A DNA stretch of 15,135 nucleotides from a virus (taxonomy: Duplodnaviria; Heunggongvirae; Uroviricota; Caudoviricetes), in the IMG/VR virus record IMGVR_UViG_2721755498_000002; one strand, written 5' to 3'. This document shows positions 1,193 through 15,135 of the stretch, one piece after another. The notes below the pieces were generated by a model, which ran no database searches, was not told the origin of the DNA, and saw only the letters and a program-made list of their open reading frames with translations. How positions within the stretch are numbered: the stretch's first letter is position 1; the number at the start of each line of letters is the position of its first letter. The position numbers and the translations under genes are program-made.

Positions 1193-1236
1193 ACAGATAA
1201 CACAAAGCCCGTTTTCACGGGCTTTGTGTTATCTGT
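1193..1236. terminator. perfect 19-bp inverted repeat (ACAGATAACACAAAGCCCG / CGGGCTTTGTGTTATCTGT) with a 4-6 nt loop; possible bidirectional terminator or protein-binding palindrome
   Basis: Arms at 1193-1211 and 1218-1236 are exact reverse complements. Lies just downstream of the - strand cassette ending at 1264. No strong U-tract on either strand, so terminator function is uncertain. Confidence 0.35.
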
Positions 1237-1263: not shown

Positions 1264-2156
1264 CTATTTCCAGTTACAAGCAGCTTGAAGTGGTTTTAGC
1301 GCGTTTGACAGGCCGTTTAAATTGAAAGTTGCACTTACAGGGCTCTCATTATAAGGAGTTATTTTTGTATACATTTTGTTTGAGTTGGCTAGTTTTCGGA
1401 TGAAATCAATGTCATTACCTTTATAAAAAACAGCCTTTGTATCTGTAGATACTAGCCAGTTTCGCTCAACTGCTTTCTGTTTATCAAGACGATAAAGCAT
1501 GCTGGTTTGTTCAAGGCCTAAATATACATCCCAACTAAGAAATACTTCGGTTTTCTTTTCTCGGCAAGCTATAAACAGAGTGGGAGTAACCGCTTCTCCA
1601 AATGGAGTTCTGATATAATCATCACTTTCTAACGATAAAATTACATTTTTCGAATCATCAATTGGCGATGTAGTAATGGATGTGTGCCATTTTCCTACAT
1701 CTGTGGCTTTCTCTAATTTTGATTCAGCTTGAACAGCTTTATCCTGTGGGAATAGTTTATCGTAGCAGTTTAGTCTGGCTTCTTTATCATTTTCTGCTCG
1801 GCATTTAGATATCTCAGAAAGATTTGGTTGCTGAGCCTCTGTTGTTACTGGCTTTTCCGTTTTAGATTTTGAGTTTACAGATGGAGTAAATGTTGGAGAA
1901 AAAAACGATCATAACAAGATAAACGTCTGTCATCATCTTTCTCATCAGGGCATTGATCTCTGCTTTCGAATTTTTCAGCAACTTTCGTTCGAGTCGGTTG
2001 TATTGACTTATCGTAACAAGAAAGTCTGTCTTTATTATTTTCTATTGCTCGGCACTGGAGTACTGCATTGAAGTTATTATGTTCAGTTGCTGCGTGAACA
2101 GGCAGTACACTAATTGATATAAATGATGCACCTATAGAAAAAATTATATTTTTCAT
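1264..2156 (-). pseudogene. secreted Cys-repeat protein gene split by a frameshift in an A7/T7 homopolymer (ORFs 1875..2156 and 1264..1908)
   Basis: The 93-aa ORF starts with a signal-peptide-like MKNIIFSIGASFISISVLPVHA. Its frame stops at 1875-1877, while a second frame is open from 1908 down to 1264 with no start codon until 1500. The two frames overlap across the A7 run at 1899-1905; one extra base would fuse them into about 297 aa. The motif RL[SN]CYD[KR] occurs three times across both halves, which supports a single original gene. Confidence 0.5.
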
Positions 2157-2160
2157 TTTG

Positions 2161-2493
2161 TTATCCTTTTGGTTTAGTAAGAAATACTAAAATTCCGATA
2201 ATGATATCGCCAATAACCCATAAACTTCCAATGGTAATTAAACCTAAGCCTGTACCAATAACTGCACCGGCTTTTTCGGCATCGGATGTAGCATTATTTA
2301 TTATTTCACTAGTGCCTCCCAGTCCAACTAAAAGCGTATAGATCATAAAAATATTAAATAATATAAATATCCACTTAATGAGCTTTCCAAAAAATGAACG
2401 CTTAAGTTTTTTTATTTGTTTACCGCAAGCAGGGCAATACAATGCTGAATCGCTCACCTCTTTCTGGCATTCAGGACATTTGATTAATGCCAT
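2161..2493 (-). CDS. zinc-ribbon domain membrane protein (N-terminal CPEC-x13-CPAC, then two hydrophobic glycine-rich helices)
   Basis: 110-aa ORF with a strong RBS (AAGGAGG) upstream of the ATG at 2493. Stop is 4 nt from the start of the downstream signal-peptide ORF, suggesting an operon. AT-rich. Confidence 0.6.
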   Translation of the reverse strand: MALIKCPECQKEVSDSALYCPACGKQIKKLKRSFFGKLIKWIFILFNIFMIYTLLVGLGGTSEIINNATSDAEKAGAVIGTGLGLITIGSLWVIGDIIIGILVFLTKPKG

Positions 2494-2753
2494 GTAATCC
2501 GCCTCCTTTGGATCAATACGAGTTGATATTTGTTACAAAACATTTTGATTTTATCAGATTTTTTTTATTGATAAGTGTCAATTGATTAGCTGGTATAGAG
2601 TGAGACATATAGAAGGGCAGATCTGTATCAGTAGTGATGCAAAAATCCCACAGTTTCATGGAATTTTTGCATTTAGAGCCGTGAGATAGGGTGCCTTATC
2701 GACCTTACCCTGGCAACCGATTGACGGGGGATTACTCCCCCGTCGCGGTTTCC

Positions 2754-2894
2754 TTACTGCTTACACTGTAAGAACGCCGCAAACTCCGCTCCCCAGAAAC
2801 TCATCCGTATTTCGCACAGCGAACCGTGCAACATCCAGATGATGAGGATTACCGTCACGCAGAACGTGATGGCTGTAAGCGATTTTTGCGACAT
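2754..2894 (-). CDS. hok: Hok/Gef-family type I toxin (46 aa: MSQKSLTAITFCVTVILIIWMLHGSLCEIRMSFWGAEFAAFLQCKQ)
   Basis: Hand translation of the - strand. Single N-terminal transmembrane helix followed by the SLCE[IL] and E[LFV]AAF[LM] motifs typical of Hok proteins (compare HokA ...WMIRDSLCELHIKQESYELAAFLACK... as recalled). AAGGAG RBS 8 nt upstream. GC-rich hairpin (2723-2744) just downstream. Not in the ORF track because it is under 60 aa. Confidence 0.7.
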   Translation of the reverse strand: MSQKSLTAITFCVTVILIIWMLHGSLCEIRMSFWGAEFAAFLQCKQ

Positions 2895-3084: not shown

Positions 3085-3345
3085 TTAATTCTGAGGTAAA
3101 GGCAAACTCATCTGATTGTTTCCCCTGTGTGAAGCTGGTAGCACATGCCACGGGATACCTTCTGAAGAGTGAACGCCGGAGGCGTGTTTCGATGTGAATT
3201 TATGGAAAGCTTCCAGTGTTGAGAAGCATACGCCGCATTCCAGATTGTTACACTGGTAATACTTTTGCCGCACGGTGTTTGAATCATTTTCCGGACGACT
3301 TGTGCGGATACGGGCAGATGCGCCACAAAGCGGACAACGGAACAT
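3085..3345 (-). CDS. ogr: Ogr/Delta-family zinc-finger late transcription activator
   Basis: N-terminus MFRCPLCGASARIRTSR...YYQCNNLECGVCF matches the C-x2-C-x22-C-x4-C Ogr zinc finger (P2 Ogr begins MFHCPLCQHAAHARTSR as recalled). AGGGAGG RBS 5 nt upstream of the ATG. Confidence 0.85.
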   Translation of the reverse strand: MFRCPLCGASARIRTSRPENDSNTVRQKYYQCNNLECGVCFSTLEAFHKFTSKHASGVHSSEGIPWHVLPASHRGNNQMSLPLPQN

Positions 3346-3536: not shown

Positions 3537-4559
3537 ATGGGAAGAGATATAACGCTGTACCCTAAAAAAGCAACTAGAAACGAACTTAAAAATTACCTTG
3601 AAAATTTAGGTTTTAAAAGGTGTAAACATTTGTGGGAATGGCCCCAAGGAACGTTGAATTACTCTTGGTTTGATGATACGGACTTCAAATCTACAGATGG
3701 AGTTTCGGCTGATATATATCCTGTTTCAAATGACGAATTACACATATCTGGTAATAAATGGGCATTGCATGTGCGTAATTTATATAGCGCTAGTTGGCAT
3801 GATGTAAAAATGCTTAATGATGTTCTAAAAGGCGCAAGGAGTCTTTTTGGTGGAACACTTATAGGTGATTATGGGAAAAATAGGTACGCTCCTCTATGGA
3901 AGGATTCTAGTAGTCCGATCAGTCGTGGCATTTCTTCAATATTTAATCATGTCCATCATGAGATTTCCGCTGTTAAACATGCCTTACCTGAACCTTCTAT
4001 TAAATTAAACCTACCGGAAGATGGCGGTTTATCCGAATACTTTGATTACATGCAATGTATGGATCCCAGTAGAGTTATATATAATGGATTAGTACCTTTT
4101 GCGGTTGCTATGTTTGAATACTTTTTCTCTAGAGCTTTTCAAATACTTATAAAGTACGATCCTTTCGCAATAGCAAAAAGAACATCGTATAAGCAAAAAG
4201 TTGATTTTGATATTCTGCTTGAGATAGAGAAAGGAAATATTTCAATAGAAAGTGTTATTGCAAGAAATTACACTTTTCAAAACTTAACCCACCTAAACAA
4301 AGCATATAAAGAGTGGCTGGATATAGATGTGAGAGCGATTCTTTATAAGAAAAAAAGAATTGGAAAATCAGTTGATTTTCTTGAGAATCGAATTTCTGAA
4401 ATCATACAATATAGACATGGGATAGTTCATCACTTTGAGTTGGATAGGACCTTAAATCGGGATGGATATATTCATATATTAGATGCGATAGAAAAAAGCA
4501 TAATTGAATTTATCCATTACATAGAAGGCAAATACAAATTTAAATTAAATGCGTATTAA
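3537..4559 (+). CDS. hypothetical 340-aa protein; AT-rich cargo gene with a C-terminal HEPN-like R-x4-H motif (YRHGIVHH, residues 292-299); candidate abortive-infection or defence protein
   Basis: Long uninterrupted ORF with strongly AT-biased codon usage, unlike the flanking phage genes. Sits between ogr and D on the opposite strand. Lys/Ile/Asn/Tyr-rich composition. No family recognised by eye. Confidence 0.7.
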   Translation: MGRDITLYPKKATRNELKNYLENLGFKRCKHLWEWPQGTLNYSWFDDTDFKSTDGVSADIYPVSNDELHISGNKWALHVRNLYSASWHDVKMLNDVLKGARSLFGGTLIGDYGKNRYAPLWKDSSSPISRGISSIFNHVHHEISAVKHALPEPSIKLNLPEDGGLSEYFDYMQCMDPSRVIYNGLVPFAVAMFEYFFSRAFQILIKYDPFAIAKRTSYKQKVDFDILLEIEKGNISIESVIARNYTFQNLTHLNKAYKEWLDIDVRAILYKKKRIGKSVDFLENRISEIIQYRHGIVHHFELDRTLNRDGYIHILDAIEKSIIEFIHYIEGKYKFKLNAY

Positions 4560-7698: not shown

Positions 7699-8073
7699 AT
7701 GAAAGACATCGATACTGAAACCCGGAATAACACCGTGGCGGATGATGTGACGGCAGGTGAGGATATGGCTGTCGAACGTGGCGTAAAACTGACCCGACCA
7801 ATTGAGCGTGGTGGCGAAAAAATCACGTATGTGGAGATCACCGGGGCTATTGAGCAGGCTGGATCCCTGCGTGGTCTGTCGCTGTCTGATGTGCTGAATC
7901 TGAAAGCGGATACCATGTTCACGCTGTTGCCTCGCGTGACCTCGCCACGACTGGATGAAGTGATGATTAAAAAAATGTCGTCACGCGATTTTATTCAGTT
8001 GTGCGCTGTGGCTGTAAATTTTATGAGCGAGCCAGACTCTGGCGCGAAGAGCGTGCAGGAGACGGCAGCGTAA
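7699..8073 (+). CDS. E: tail assembly chaperone gpE
   Basis: 124-aa ORF with AAGGAG RBS, located between the tube and tape-measure genes. An overlapping -1 frame ORF follows, as in P2 E/E'. Confidence 0.8.
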   Translation: MKDIDTETRNNTVADDVTAGEDMAVERGVKLTRPIERGGEKITYVEITGAIEQAGSLRGLSLSDVLNLKADTMFTLLPRVTSPRLDEVMIKKMSSRDFIQLCAVAVNFMSEPDSGAKSVQETAA

Positions 8074-8237
8074 TCACCCTGGTGTGCTTTGAGCACATCG
8101 AAGATCTGGTGGCGGATATTGCCGCCATTTTTAACTGGTCGCCCGCCGAAATCTTCATGATGACGCCCGGCGAAGTGGTTAGCTGGCGCGAGCGGGCGGC
8201 ACTTCGCAGCGGGAATGCAGATAATGAAGACTCTTGA
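7699..8237 (+). CDS. E+E': tail assembly chaperone E+E' made by programmed -1 ribosomal frameshift (candidate slip sites A7 at 7969-7975 or AAATTTT at 8016-8022)
   Basis: The -1 frame opens at 7971, right after a TAA at 7968-7970, and runs to the TGA at 8235-8237, overlapping the T start. The E frame stops at 8071-8073. Both heptamer-like sites fall in the overlap. P2-like phages make E+E' this way. Confidence 0.6.
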
Positions 8238-11628: not shown

Positions 11629-12837
11629 TTATAAAGAATTGCTACTTTCTAATTCTGGGTTTCTGGATCTATTTTTACAACCTAAATCCGAGTGGTAATT
11701 CGGTATATCGTTTGTCAAATCTTGTTTGATAGCATTAATTAAGATCATTATGTCGAATTTATGCATATCGTCGCCCCCTTCAGACCTTAGATGTTCGGAT
11801 GTGGTGAGTTGAGTCGCTAATTTGCTGTTTGGCCCCCACACAATATTATTTTCGAATTTTCCTTCATGCATTCTGTTATTATATATACAGTATTGTCTAA
11901 TGTTTAATGCACTGGCTAAATGTACAATGGCAGTATCTACAGTTATAACAAAATCAGCATGGCGAACCAATGCAAATGAACATCCGGCATCAGAAAATGG
12001 AGATAGAGACACATTATCCAATCCATTGTGATTAATCTGTTTTCCCATATTAAAAACTATTGTGTGATATCCCTTAAGGTTATTAAGGTAAGCTAGTACT
12101 TTGTTTATCTGTTCATCAGATAAGGTTCTGCTATTCTGAGAGCCATAAGGGTTAAATATAACTAATTTTTTGTTTTTCTTCCTGAATTCATTTGCAACAA
12201 TATTTGCTGGTTCATATATTTTGTTGTCAAAATTAAGCGCTGCAGCATAATTATTATTTTTTATCTTTAGTAAAGATAAAACTTTTTTCATTCTTTCAGA
12301 TGTGTGAATGGAACGATTATCGATTATATTTGTATCAAAAATAGTTACGGCAGGATGATTAAAACAGATAGAGTGTTTAGGTCTAAGTAAATGTAGTGTT
12401 TGCAATCTGGTTATCGCTGTGTTATCAAAATTTGAGAAGTCAACAACAAGATCTACATTCAGTTTTTTTATCTTTGCTTTTAGTTCGTTAAATTTATTTT
12501 TCTCGTAAGATATAAAGGCATCCACGCCAACAATATCAGTAAAGAGGAATGATACTCTTGAAGGTGCTATCACATATACCACCATACCGGATTTTTGAAG
12601 TTGTTTAATAAACCCTGAGGTAACGATGCCGTCACCAATGGCTTGCATGTGCATGAAAATGCACACTGTTTTATAACTATCCGGCTGTAATGATGTTTTC
12701 CTTCTGTATCGCATTTTTAGAAATGCCAGTCTGGCCTTCGTCTTTATCTTTTTTGTTTTAATATTTCGCTGTCTGTTAAGCTGTTTTAATGATGAAATAA
12801 CATTCATAATGGTACCCTGAAATTCCAAATCACACAT
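11629..12837 (-). CDS. glycosyltransferase family 9 (heptosyltransferase-like) protein with a ~45-aa Lys/Arg-rich N-terminal extension; AT-rich cargo gene
   Basis: GT9 hallmarks: N-terminal Gly-Asp motif (MQAIGDGIV), central KKLVIFNPYGSQNSRTLSDEQ, and C-terminal VITVDTAIVHLASAL (compare WaaC VVSVDTGLSHLTAAL as recalled). Strong AT bias. The true start may be the internal ATG (MNVISS...) at about 12807. Confidence 0.65.
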   Translation of the reverse strand: MCDLEFQGTIMNVISSLKQLNRQRNIKTKKIKTKARLAFLKMRYRRKTSLQPDSYKTVCIFMHMQAIGDGIVTSGFIKQLQKSGMVVYVIAPSRVSFLFTDIVGVDAFISYEKNKFNELKAKIKKLNVDLVVDFSNFDNTAITRLQTLHLLRPKHSICFNHPAVTIFDTNIIDNRSIHTSERMKKVLSLLKIKNNNYAAALNFDNKIYEPANIVANEFRKKNKKLVIFNPYGSQNSRTLSDEQINKVLAYLNNLKGYHTIVFNMGKQINHNGLDNVSLSPFSDAGCSFALVRHADFVITVDTAIVHLASALNIRQYCIYNNRMHEGKFENNIVWGPNSKLATQLTTSEHLRSEGGDDMHKFDIMILINAIKQDLTNDIPNYHSDLGCKNRSRNPELESSNSL

Positions 12838-12901: not shown

Positions 12902-13501
12902 TTATGCTTGTTTACTCCTTGATTCCACTGGGGAAGCTGGCCACTCAATATCCGGTGCTCTTGATGTATCAACACGGTTCAGCAGCACTCGATACTTCTT
13001 CCAGGCTTCCAGCAACGAGATTTCTTCCTCCGTTGCGATTTCCAGATCTACAGCATCCTGAAGTGGCGCAATATGCTCACTGGCTACCTGCATCAGGCTG
13101 TTTTTTGTTTCTTCTGCCTCCCGGATCCGGAACAGTTTTTCTGCTTCCGTATCCTTCACCCAGGCTGTGCCGTTCCACTTCTGATATTCCCCTTCCGGCG
13201 ACGACCAGGTAACATTTTCCGGTAACGGACCGAGTTCAGAAATAAATAACGCGTCGCCGGAAGCCACGTCATAAACCGTTTTACCACGATGATCTTCAAC
13301 GAGATGCCAAGACGCCCCATCACTGTTGAAAACAGCCACGAAGCCAGCTGGAATATCTGGCGGAGCAATATCAGTACTATTTGCAGGCAGACCTGTATGA
13401 GGTGGAATGTATGCATCACCTTCACCAATAAATTCATTGGTTCCGACCAGCAGATTATAAATTTTTATGGTTCGTGGTTGTTCACTCATTCTGAATGCCA
13501 T
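12902..13501 (-). CDS. tfa: tail fibre assembly protein (Tfa / P2 gpG-like chaperone)
   Basis: 199 aa with the conserved Tfa C-terminus ([30 protein letters not shown]). Start overlaps the stop of the upstream tail-fibre fragment (TAATG). Confidence 0.85.
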
Positions 13502-13744
13502 TATGCAAGCCTCACAATATAGTTAAATGCGATGTTTTTTACGGTGTTTTCCGCGTTGCCATAAGCGGCAATGGTAATGGTGTGTGTGTGCGAACCAATA
13601 GCGAGCGTATGTGTATGCGCACCTATTGCTACTGTGTGAGTATGAGCTCCTGCGCTTAATACGCGATTACTTGCTGTCTTGCTTGTGTTAGTTGCATGCA
13701 TTCCACCACCGGTACCGGGAGTTTCTGCGTATGCTGAAGTATTG
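13501..13744 (-). pseudogene. tail fibre gene, C-terminal fragment only (His-x-His repeats [24 protein letters not shown]); 5' part replaced by IS1
   Basis: The reading frame runs into the IS1 left end at 13745 and the listed Met lies inside IS1. The C-terminal HTHT repeat region is typical of phage tail-fibre distal domains. Confidence 0.8.
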
Positions 13745-13799
13745 GGTGATGCTGCCAACTTACTGATTTAGTGTATGATGGTGTTTTTGAGGTGCTCCA

Positions 13800-14075
13800 G
13801 TGGCTTCTGTTTCTATCAGCTGTCCCTCCTGTTCAGCTACTGACGGGGTGGTGCGTAACGGCAAAAGCACCGCCGGACATCAGCGCTATCTCTGCTCTCA
13901 CTGCCGTAAAACATGGCAACTGCAGTTCACTTACACCGCTTCTCAACCCGGTACGCACCAGAAAATCATTGATATGGCCATGAATGGCGTTGGATGCCGG
14001 GCAACAGCCCGCATTATGGGCGTTGGCCTCAACACGATTTTACGTCACTTAAAAAACTCAGGCCGCAGTCGGTAA
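13800..14075 (+). CDS. insA: IS1 InsA (transposition repressor / N-terminal part of the InsAB' transposase)
   Basis: 91 aa; [43 protein letters not shown] is the canonical InsA sequence. Confidence 0.9.
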
Positions 14076-14497
14076 CCTCGCGCATACAGCCGGGCAGTGA
14101 CGTCATCGTCTGCGCGGAAATGGACGAACAGTGGGGATACGTCGGGGCTAAATCGCGCCAGCGCTGGCTGTTTTACGCGTATGACAGGCTCCGGAAGACG
14201 GTTGTTGCGCACGTATTCGGTGAACGCACTATGGCGACGCTGGGGCGTCTTATGAGCCTGCTGTCACCCTTTGACGTGGTGATATGGATGACGGATGGCT
14301 GGCCGCTGTATGAATCCCGCCTGAAGGGAAAGCTGCACGTAATCAGCAAGCGATATACGCAGCGAATTGAGCGGCATAACCTGAATCTGAGGCAGCACCT
14401 GGCACGGCTGGGACGGAAGTCGCTGTCGTTCTCAAAATCGGTGGAGCTGCATGACAAAGTCATCGGGCATTATCTGAACATAAAACACTATCAATAA
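13994..14497 (+). CDS. insB: IS1 InsB reading frame (expressed as the InsAB' transposase by -1 frameshift at TTAAAAAAC, 14049-14057)
   Basis: 167-aa frame matching canonical IS1 InsB ([27 protein letters not shown]...KHYQ). Confidence 0.85.
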
Positions 14498-14512
14498 GTT
14501 GGAGTCATTACC

Positions 14513-15135
14513 TGAATCGGTTATCCGGAATGTTTACCGTGCTGAAAAAAATAGGTCTTTGGGATGCAGAACATCCAGTAAGGGGAATTTCTATTCTTTA
14601 TGTATCTCCACGAGAAATGGCGTTCCTGTCACAGAAGGAAGTGGCGCTATTGCTCGATACACTGGAGGGCGACTACTGGCGTGTTGCGCTTTTGTGTTTA
14701 AGCACAGGGGCGCGCTGGAGTGAAGCTTGTAAGCTTCGTGGTGAACAGATAGTTCATAACCGTGTAACGTTTCTTGAAACCAAAAATGGCCGGAAGAGAA
14801 CAGTGCCAATTTCGCAGGCAGTTTGTGAGGCGATCAAAACCAGAGAAACAGGCGGCTTGTTTGAGGTGAAGTACCGGGAATTCTGCCTGGCGCTGAAAAG
14901 AGTTAAGCCCGATTTACCAAAAGGCCAGGCTGCACATGTGCTGCGGCATACGTTCGCCAGCCATTTTGTGATGAACGGAGGAAACATTATTGCGCTTCAG
15001 AAGATTCTTGGTCACGCAACCATTCAGCAAACAATGGCATATGCGCATTTTGCACCGGATTACCTGCAGGATGCGGTGGCCCTTAATCCGCTGAAAGGTG
15101 GCGTAAGTGTCCACGCAGTGTCCACGGGGGATTAA
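14513..15135 (+). pseudogene. int: tyrosine recombinase (phage integrase) C-terminal catalytic-domain fragment; N-terminal part removed at the IS1 junction
   Basis: The frame is open straight out of the IS1 right end. It contains the catalytic R (GARWSEA), H-x-x-R (HVLRHTFAS) and Tyr (TMAYAHF) motifs. About 207 codons, where an intact integrase would be around 330-400. Stop is at the window end. Confidence 0.8.

Follow-up and report, generated by a model that had tools for sequence, protein, structure and literature searches.

The tagO gene of the window (the whole stretch of DNA that was analysed, 15,135 nt) is probably a true and very recent frameshift pseudogene that arose at a mutational hot spot. 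A run of eight T residues would have lost one T through replication slippage (T8 to T7), after which translation would pass out of frame beyond Phe86 and stop seven codons on. The product would be a 93-aa precursor carrying the signal peptide and two Cys/RLxCYD repeats, without the third repeat and without the VasI domain, and the gene would be inactivated, as the downstream 214 codons lack a usable start. The whole VasI domain is encoded beyond the shift, and from the sequence we infer a loss of tagO function. Unprogrammed -1 slippage of ribosomes on U_UUU_UUU, or slippage of RNA polymerase, might at most supply a trace of full-length protein. The locus bears the marks of a pseudogene, with intact single-ORF orthologues and a lesion that alters a mononucleotide run by one nucleotide. 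Such a lesion is ordinary, is already present in public genomes and partly annotated there, and calls for no new mechanism. Indel rates in E. coli are reported to climb exponentially with homopolymer length (PMC8510543).

The split frame and the intact protein

The following features, all on the minus strand, make up the split gene.

1264..2156, minus strand: tagO (VasI-family, secreted), with a -1 frameshift; intact length 894 nt, 297 aa
1875..2156, minus strand: ORF1, 93 aa; Sec-type signal peptide MKNIIFSIGASFISISVLPVHA, two RLSCYD repeats, seven out-of-frame residues and a stop
1899..1905, minus strand (A7 on the plus strand): T7 run, comprising codons Phe85-Phe86 and the last base of Arg84
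1264..1908, minus strand: downstream frame, 214 codons; third RLNCYD repeat and the entire VasI domain

The N-terminal region of ORF1 begins with the signal peptide and reads MKNIIFSIGASFISISVLPVHA followed by ATEH...RLSCYD; its C-terminus ends in ...RLSCYDRFFLQHLLHL, followed by the stop codon TAA at 1877-1875. The downstream frame is closed on its 5' side by TGA at 1911-1909 and runs to a stop at 1264-1266, with its first ATG, GTG or TTG at 1500. Re-examination of the ORF and frame listing bore out the positions given in an earlier note on this DNA for the stop of the signal-peptide ORF (1875-1877) and for the downstream frame (open from 1908 to 1264, first start at 1500). The earlier note had also placed the overlap of the two frames exactly on the homopolymer. 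The T7 run does lie inside the overlap, but the overlap itself covers 34 nt (1875-1908), and the run is the spot within it where orthologues differ.

Ten A7 runs were found in the window against 7.7 expected, so that the run by itself is not above chance and the site is informative through orthologues with exactly one more T. Every intact orthologue has exactly one extra T at the run; intact alleles read CGT TTT TTT TCT, encoding R F F S (T8). With one T added to the window's run, the reading frame encodes 297 aa and contains three C-x8-9-RLxCYD repeats, as had been predicted (one extra base, about 297 aa, three RLxCYD repeats), and this repaired translation is 100% identical to an annotated TagO, WP_000789404.1 ('type VI secretion system-associated protein TagO') of E. 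coli 503025. The exact 297-aa sequence occurs on at least 1000 public contigs, and the two halves are parts of one VasI-family protein, which proves the proposal that a single gene has been split.

The alternative that two independent, unrelated genes merely abut here has practically no probability left. PGAP does annotate two separate CDSs in a diverged allele described below, but in more than 180 complete genomes both parts form one 297-aa protein. ORF2 has neither an RBS nor any ATG, GTG or TTG ahead of codon 220, and PGAP needed an ATA to start it. The two-gene reading is already refuted by the intact single-ORF orthologues.

In the repaired protein, the Sec-type signal peptide is followed by the three Cys-x8-9-RLxCYD repeats, and Pfam VasI (PF11319) is matched over aa 118-296 with 89.6 bits (gathering cutoff 26.5; E 2.6e-25). 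The NCBIfam equivalog model TIGR03360 gave 75.9 bits, under its cutoff of 124.2. By these profile scores the repaired TagO is classed as a member of the family but as no equivalog of Vibrio cholerae VasI. The C-terminal domain matches phrog_1848 (E 2e-37), a phage family with no known function, and a PDB sequence search with TagO returned no meaningful match. The function of TagO/VasI is given as unknown in a 2026 review (PMC13584744). With the VasI/TagO proteins of T6SS clusters (VCA0118; PF11319, TIGR03360) the protein shares the C-terminal VasI domain of 180 aa above the Pfam threshold; it differs from them in being prophage cargo, in falling below the TIGR03360 cutoff and in having two extra N-terminal Cys/RLxCYD repeats. 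No T6SS core genes were found in the 15-kb window or in related loci, where the neighbours are flk, the zinc-ribbon gene, hok, ogr and P2 tail genes.

Tract length in public genomes and sequence quality

Tract states were counted with allele-specific queries of 80 or 81 nt, retaining exact matches. Counting by BLAST identity bands over all alleles was discarded, since local alignments were trimmed and only the exact-match band was reliable. The earlier note had suggested comparing run length at orthologous loci; intact alleles were found to have T8, and in the window's exact 80-nt context complete genomes gave 56 with T8 and two with T7. These two are E. coli 504211 (CP025865.1, CXX09_RS27005) and O55:H7 DEC5A (CP038394.1, E3155_RS26960), in both of which the same gene at the flk-adjacent locus has undergone the T8 to T7 change within an identical 80-nt context and is marked 'frameshifted' by PGAP. 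Strain 504211 differs from the window at 11 of 82 variable sites of the 3.4-kb ogr-flk segment, and DEC5A is unlike the window in having a second frameshift (T6 to T5 at codons 5-6).

Loci sampled through the neighbouring zinc-ribbon protein, and thus at any tract length, were intact in 10 of 10 cases, and length-independent pattern scans of metagenome and viral contigs gave T8 in 11 of 12 and T7 in one. The exact 93-aa ORF1 product is found on 53 public contigs, and the 'RFFLQHLL' truncation on at least three other protein alleles (57, 22 and 7 contigs), so that T7 is present on at least four protein alleles overall. Exact look-ups of hypothetical products found T9 in one allele (four short contigs) and no T6 product. 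The tagO locus is carried by about 235 of 5426 complete E. coli genomes, and at least 44 of these (about 19%) have T7: 41 have a diverged allele, one has allele C (Arg77Lys) and the two named above have the window's context. When haplotypes were defined by the 82 variable sites of the ogr-flk segment, 11 distinct T7 assemblies were spread over at least eight haplotypes, and three of these haplotypes had T8 twins at 0 SNPs; the T8 to T7 event is therefore recurrent. As judged from these alignments, the intact state is T8, and T7 has arisen repeatedly as a derived and presumptively loss-of-function allele.

Over 10,156 nt the window is 100% identical to ENA ERZ27318586 contig k141_210709, from a MEGAHIT-style metagenome (24 kb). 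The T8 relatives closest to it (L023 and L024) are 3-4 SNPs away over 3.4 kb. The window gene is otherwise identical to the intact allele, which means either that the event was very recent or that the run was miscalled. The latter reading, an assembly or sequencing artefact in which the true state is T8 (with A9 in a second run upstream) and both long homopolymers were under-called, is unlikely but well within reason. The second run is as follows.

2559..2566, minus strand: second homopolymer (A8 when read on the coding strand); the first ATG of the operon lies 66 nt downstream

Relative to close relatives the only private indels are single deletions in the two longest runs, 8 to 7 and 9 to 8, which is the signature of homopolymer under-calling as well. 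tagO shows no other change, the source is a fragmented 24-kb metagenome contig, and at least three of the 11 public T7 assemblies have other homopolymer errors in core genes. Against an artefact, the flanking core genes are all intact, with no private indel beyond the two longest homopolymers. Short reads rarely miscall 7-9-mers by majority, and the MEGAHIT 'k141' contig name, which we take to indicate short reads of at least 141 nt, points to such data. The upstream A8 is a genuine natural variant, found exactly in 10 complete genomes (A9 exactly in 64). T7 is also present without any other indel in three apparently short-read assemblies (L010, L015 and L016), and it is demonstrably real in DEC5A and in the 41 diverged-allele records.

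Three of the public assemblies, L012, L013 and L014 (CP164765.1, CP163857.1 and JBQMUY010000001.1), have a G5 to G4 change in the core gene mnmC, A9 to A7 in the upstream run and split tail genes, and appear to contain uncorrected long-read homopolymer errors. Errors of this type make tagO T7 look more frequent in public data than it is.

The upstream A-run is polymorphic (A7-A9) and is one residue shorter in the window than in the nearest relatives. It lies, within region 2548-2581, between a perfect TTGACA and an extended -10-like TGaTAAAAT, 22 nt apart. A role as promoter-spacer switch was considered and is unlikely, the spacing being 21-23 nt for A7-A9 and never near 17 nt; a promoter scan found nothing at the TTGACA/TGnTAAAAT region. 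All four short-read-like T7 assemblies have a shortened upstream A-run, an association that is not significant among apparently short-read assemblies (Fisher p=0.24). With A8 genuine in complete genomes, the link was rejected, and it was used neither as evidence of error nor as evidence of a mutator.

Decay of T7 lineages, with phase variation and recoding as improbable alternatives

This -1 event has recurred within E. coli, and genes in which it is old have decayed further. In a 92%-identical allele of the zinc-ribbon/tagO module, T7 was found in 41 complete-genome records (32 chromosomes at flk and nine ETEC plasmids of different replicon types, pCss165Kan among them) and T8 in only about five. 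The split gene of ETEC O6:H16 chromosomes and virulence plasmids (pCss165Kan NC_022333.1: WP_016607956.1 and WP_071594475.1) resembles that of the window in having the same T7 frameshift at the same codon, a 93-aa ORF1, the zinc-ribbon/tagO module and ogr and hok remnants. It differs in being about 8% diverged, with T7 in the majority, a lost conserved Cys (C47Y), a lost stop codon and partly plasmid-borne carriage. PGAP annotates this allele as two CDSs and starts ORF2 at ATA. Orthologues showing two ORFs with independent starts had been named in the earlier note as evidence that would speak against a split gene; this one lineage of 41 records has that arrangement superficially, with an ORF2 that lacks a canonical start and with extra lesions. 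Loci inspected for the diverged allele include L043 5338-6248 (pCss165Kan), L044, L045 5786-6696 and L047 2786-3678.

On the two T7 branches of the diverged allele the ratio of nonsynonymous to synonymous changes (N:S) was 10:4, against 18:36 in comparisons among intact alleles (odds ratio 5, p=0.015); branches were assigned with the intact allele as outgroup, and these small numbers are indicative only. The tagO of the DEC5A lineage (L005 7786-8677, and L037) carries T6 to T5 at codons 5-6 in addition to T8 to T7. This double frameshift is repeated in an independent IMG/VR record that is identical without gaps over 4.4 kb, and the lineage is a clear case of progressive decay after a first lesion.

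The run itself varies among homologues that encode the same RFFSP: in PhiR44_2 it reads TTTCTTTT (CGT TTC TTT TCT) and in Klebsiella phages it is a T5 (AGA TTT TTC TCG). By this comparison the homopolymer is not conserved where the amino acids are. Since the uninterrupted state of the tract is not kept, no structure accompanies it and T7 lineages are decaying, the pattern is that of a mutational hot spot yielding pseudogenes and not of a maintained switch or a programmed frameshift. The earlier note had left three explanations side by side; the recent pseudogene is the best supported, a sequencing error is possible, and the evolved slippage-prone switch is unsupported, because the tract is not conserved and the older T7 lineages are decaying.

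Phase variation of the contingency type, with the T-run as a selected and reversible on/off switch for TagO expression, is accordingly highly improbable. It would account for repeated alteration of one site on many backgrounds, for the T9 variant (four short contigs) and for a second polymorphic run upstream of the operon. The diverged allele, moreover, comprises two T7 sub-lineages and one T8 lineage in a near-trichotomy, so that one T7 to T8 reversion is as parsimonious as two independent losses. As in the contingency loci of Haemophilus, Neisseria and Campylobacter, a coding mononucleotide run sets the frame and is changed recurrently. Unlike those loci, the tagO run is short (8 nt) and is not conserved: close homologues that encode the same residues (PhiR44_2, Klebsiella phages) have it interrupted or lack it, so that it is not kept free of synonymous interruption, and its OFF alleles decay. 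T7 far outnumbers T9, and T6 was not found. Outside the run, the OFF alleles of DEC5A and of the diverged lineage are not intact, although the window's copy is; T7 lineages gather further inactivating changes at a near-neutral N:S, which is the behaviour of a dead gene and not of a switchable one. To our knowledge, E. coli has no reputation for homopolymer contingency loci, and the tagO alleles compared gave no evidence of high-rate reversible switching. A weaker version, in which the T8/T7 run, together with the A7-A9 run, is a slow, evolutionarily reversible on/off site and T7 might leak full-length TagO, is also very unlikely. If it were true, selection, and not decay alone, would lie behind the T7 share of about 19% and the T7 majority in an ETEC-associated allele.

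Recoding, in which T7 would yield full-length TagO beside the 93-aa product through programmed -1 frameshifting or transcriptional slippage (for the general principle of the latter, see Baranov 2005, PMC1088944), would be most unexpected here. The T7 run does provide an in-frame X_XXY_YYZ heptamer (CG U_UUU_UUU C) on which a -1 shift restores wild-type RFFSP exactly, and the two-ORF form is the majority state of the diverged allele (41 records against about five). In E. coli, U_UU.U_UU.U belongs to the motifs on which more than 0.1% of frameshifting occurs even with no stimulator (PMC4066793), and trace read-through is therefore plausible. Beyond the slippery heptamer the expected features of a programmed site were missing: the 99 nt downstream of the run have no unusual structure (-10.3 kcal/mol, z = -0.36), no SD-like (GGAGG-like) element was seen upstream of the run, and neither conservation nor downstream purifying selection was found. 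A plain single ORF is both the ancestral arrangement and the most frequent one; in the T7 lineages constraint is relaxed and a second frameshift is present. Seven nt is also short for efficient transcriptional slippage, the bacterial cases of which known to us use 9 or more nt.

The P2-like prophage remnant and its cargo

tagO lies between a chromosomal gene and a set of P2-like prophage genes, with the following neighbours.

1-996: flk, chromosomal gene, the other flank
1199..1230, minus strand: 13-bp perfect inverted repeat AACACAAAGCCCG-tgaaaa-CGGGCTTTGTGTT, 34 nt past the tagO stop
2161..2493, minus strand: zinc-ribbon membrane protein gene, 110 aa (phrog_6586, E 7e-43)
2754-2894, minus strand: hok/gef toxin gene (Pfam HOK_GEF)
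3085-3345, minus strand: ogr, P2 late activator (Pfam Ogr_Delta)

The stop of the zinc-ribbon gene is 4 nt from the tagO ATG, the two genes adjoin in all relatives and phages compared, and they are probably co-transcribed. The inverted repeat at 1199..1230 is likely to be the operon terminator; a terminator scan did not list it, because no T-run follows the repeat. The zinc-ribbon gene and tagO thus look, from their arrangement, like a two-gene operon with tagO last, for which reason no polar effect would be expected from the frameshift.

Upstream on the coding strand follow hok/gef, ogr, a 340-aa ORF, gpD and the P2 tail genes FI, FII, E, T and U, and past these the genes for a GT9 glycosyltransferase and for tail-fibre assembly. 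A tail-fibre stub truncated by IS1 comes next, and an integrase fragment closes the window. In region 13501-15135, IS1 (13745-14513) truncates the tail-fibre gene and abuts the phage integrase fragment (14530-15135). The prophage lacks head, lysis, baseplate and early genes and is therefore a remnant of about 14 kb. The window thus holds a degraded, IS1-truncated P2-like remnant beside flk in E. coli. In a P88-like phage (Xuanwuvirus P884B11) the order is D, ogr, hok, ..., zinc-ribbon, tagO, integrase, and in PhiR44_2 the zinc-ribbon/tagO module stands at the genome end. From this gene order, the module is assigned as cargo between ogr and attP of P2-like Peduoviridae. The record 'Escherichia phage 500465-2' was set aside as evidence of phage carriage, as it has chromosomal flanks (flk, fabB) and is only a predicted prophage.

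Three further genes of the remnant were noted. The 340-aa ORF between ogr and gpD (3537-4559, plus strand) is missing from both PhiR44_2 and the P88-like phage, in which gpD directly adjoins ogr. Its match to HEPN (RiboL-PSP) is weak and below threshold (22.5 bits); it has no PHROG, NCBIfam or PADLOC match and could be an uncharacterised prophage cargo or defence gene; a PADLOC search with the cargo genes likewise gave no match. The glycosyltransferase family 9 (heptosyltransferase-like) gene at 11629-12837 (minus strand), between gpU and the tail-fibre assembly gene, occupies the position of the P2 Z/fun cargo slot and may be an LPS-modifying lysogenic-conversion gene. The P2 gpE homologue (124 aa; 7699-8237, plus strand) is overlapped by a -1-frame ORF (8001-8237) with a GpE-family extension, an overlap that resembles, by analogy, the conserved E/E' tail-chaperone programmed frameshift of P2-like phages.

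The window is a routine case of repeated single-base deletion at an 8-nt homopolymer, here in a dispensable cargo gene of a prophage, and at such sites true deletions are easily confused with sequencing errors. In annotation, a single 'tagO, frameshifted' pseudogene should replace the two ORFs. PGAP is inconsistent on the same lesion: some genomes receive a 'frameshifted' pseudogene, others two CDSs with an ATA start. For the family, a 'T6SS-associated' VasI-family protein is a common cargo of P2-like phages that is recurrently lost, and the broken tagO predominates in an ETEC-associated allele, where it is also found on virulence plasmids.
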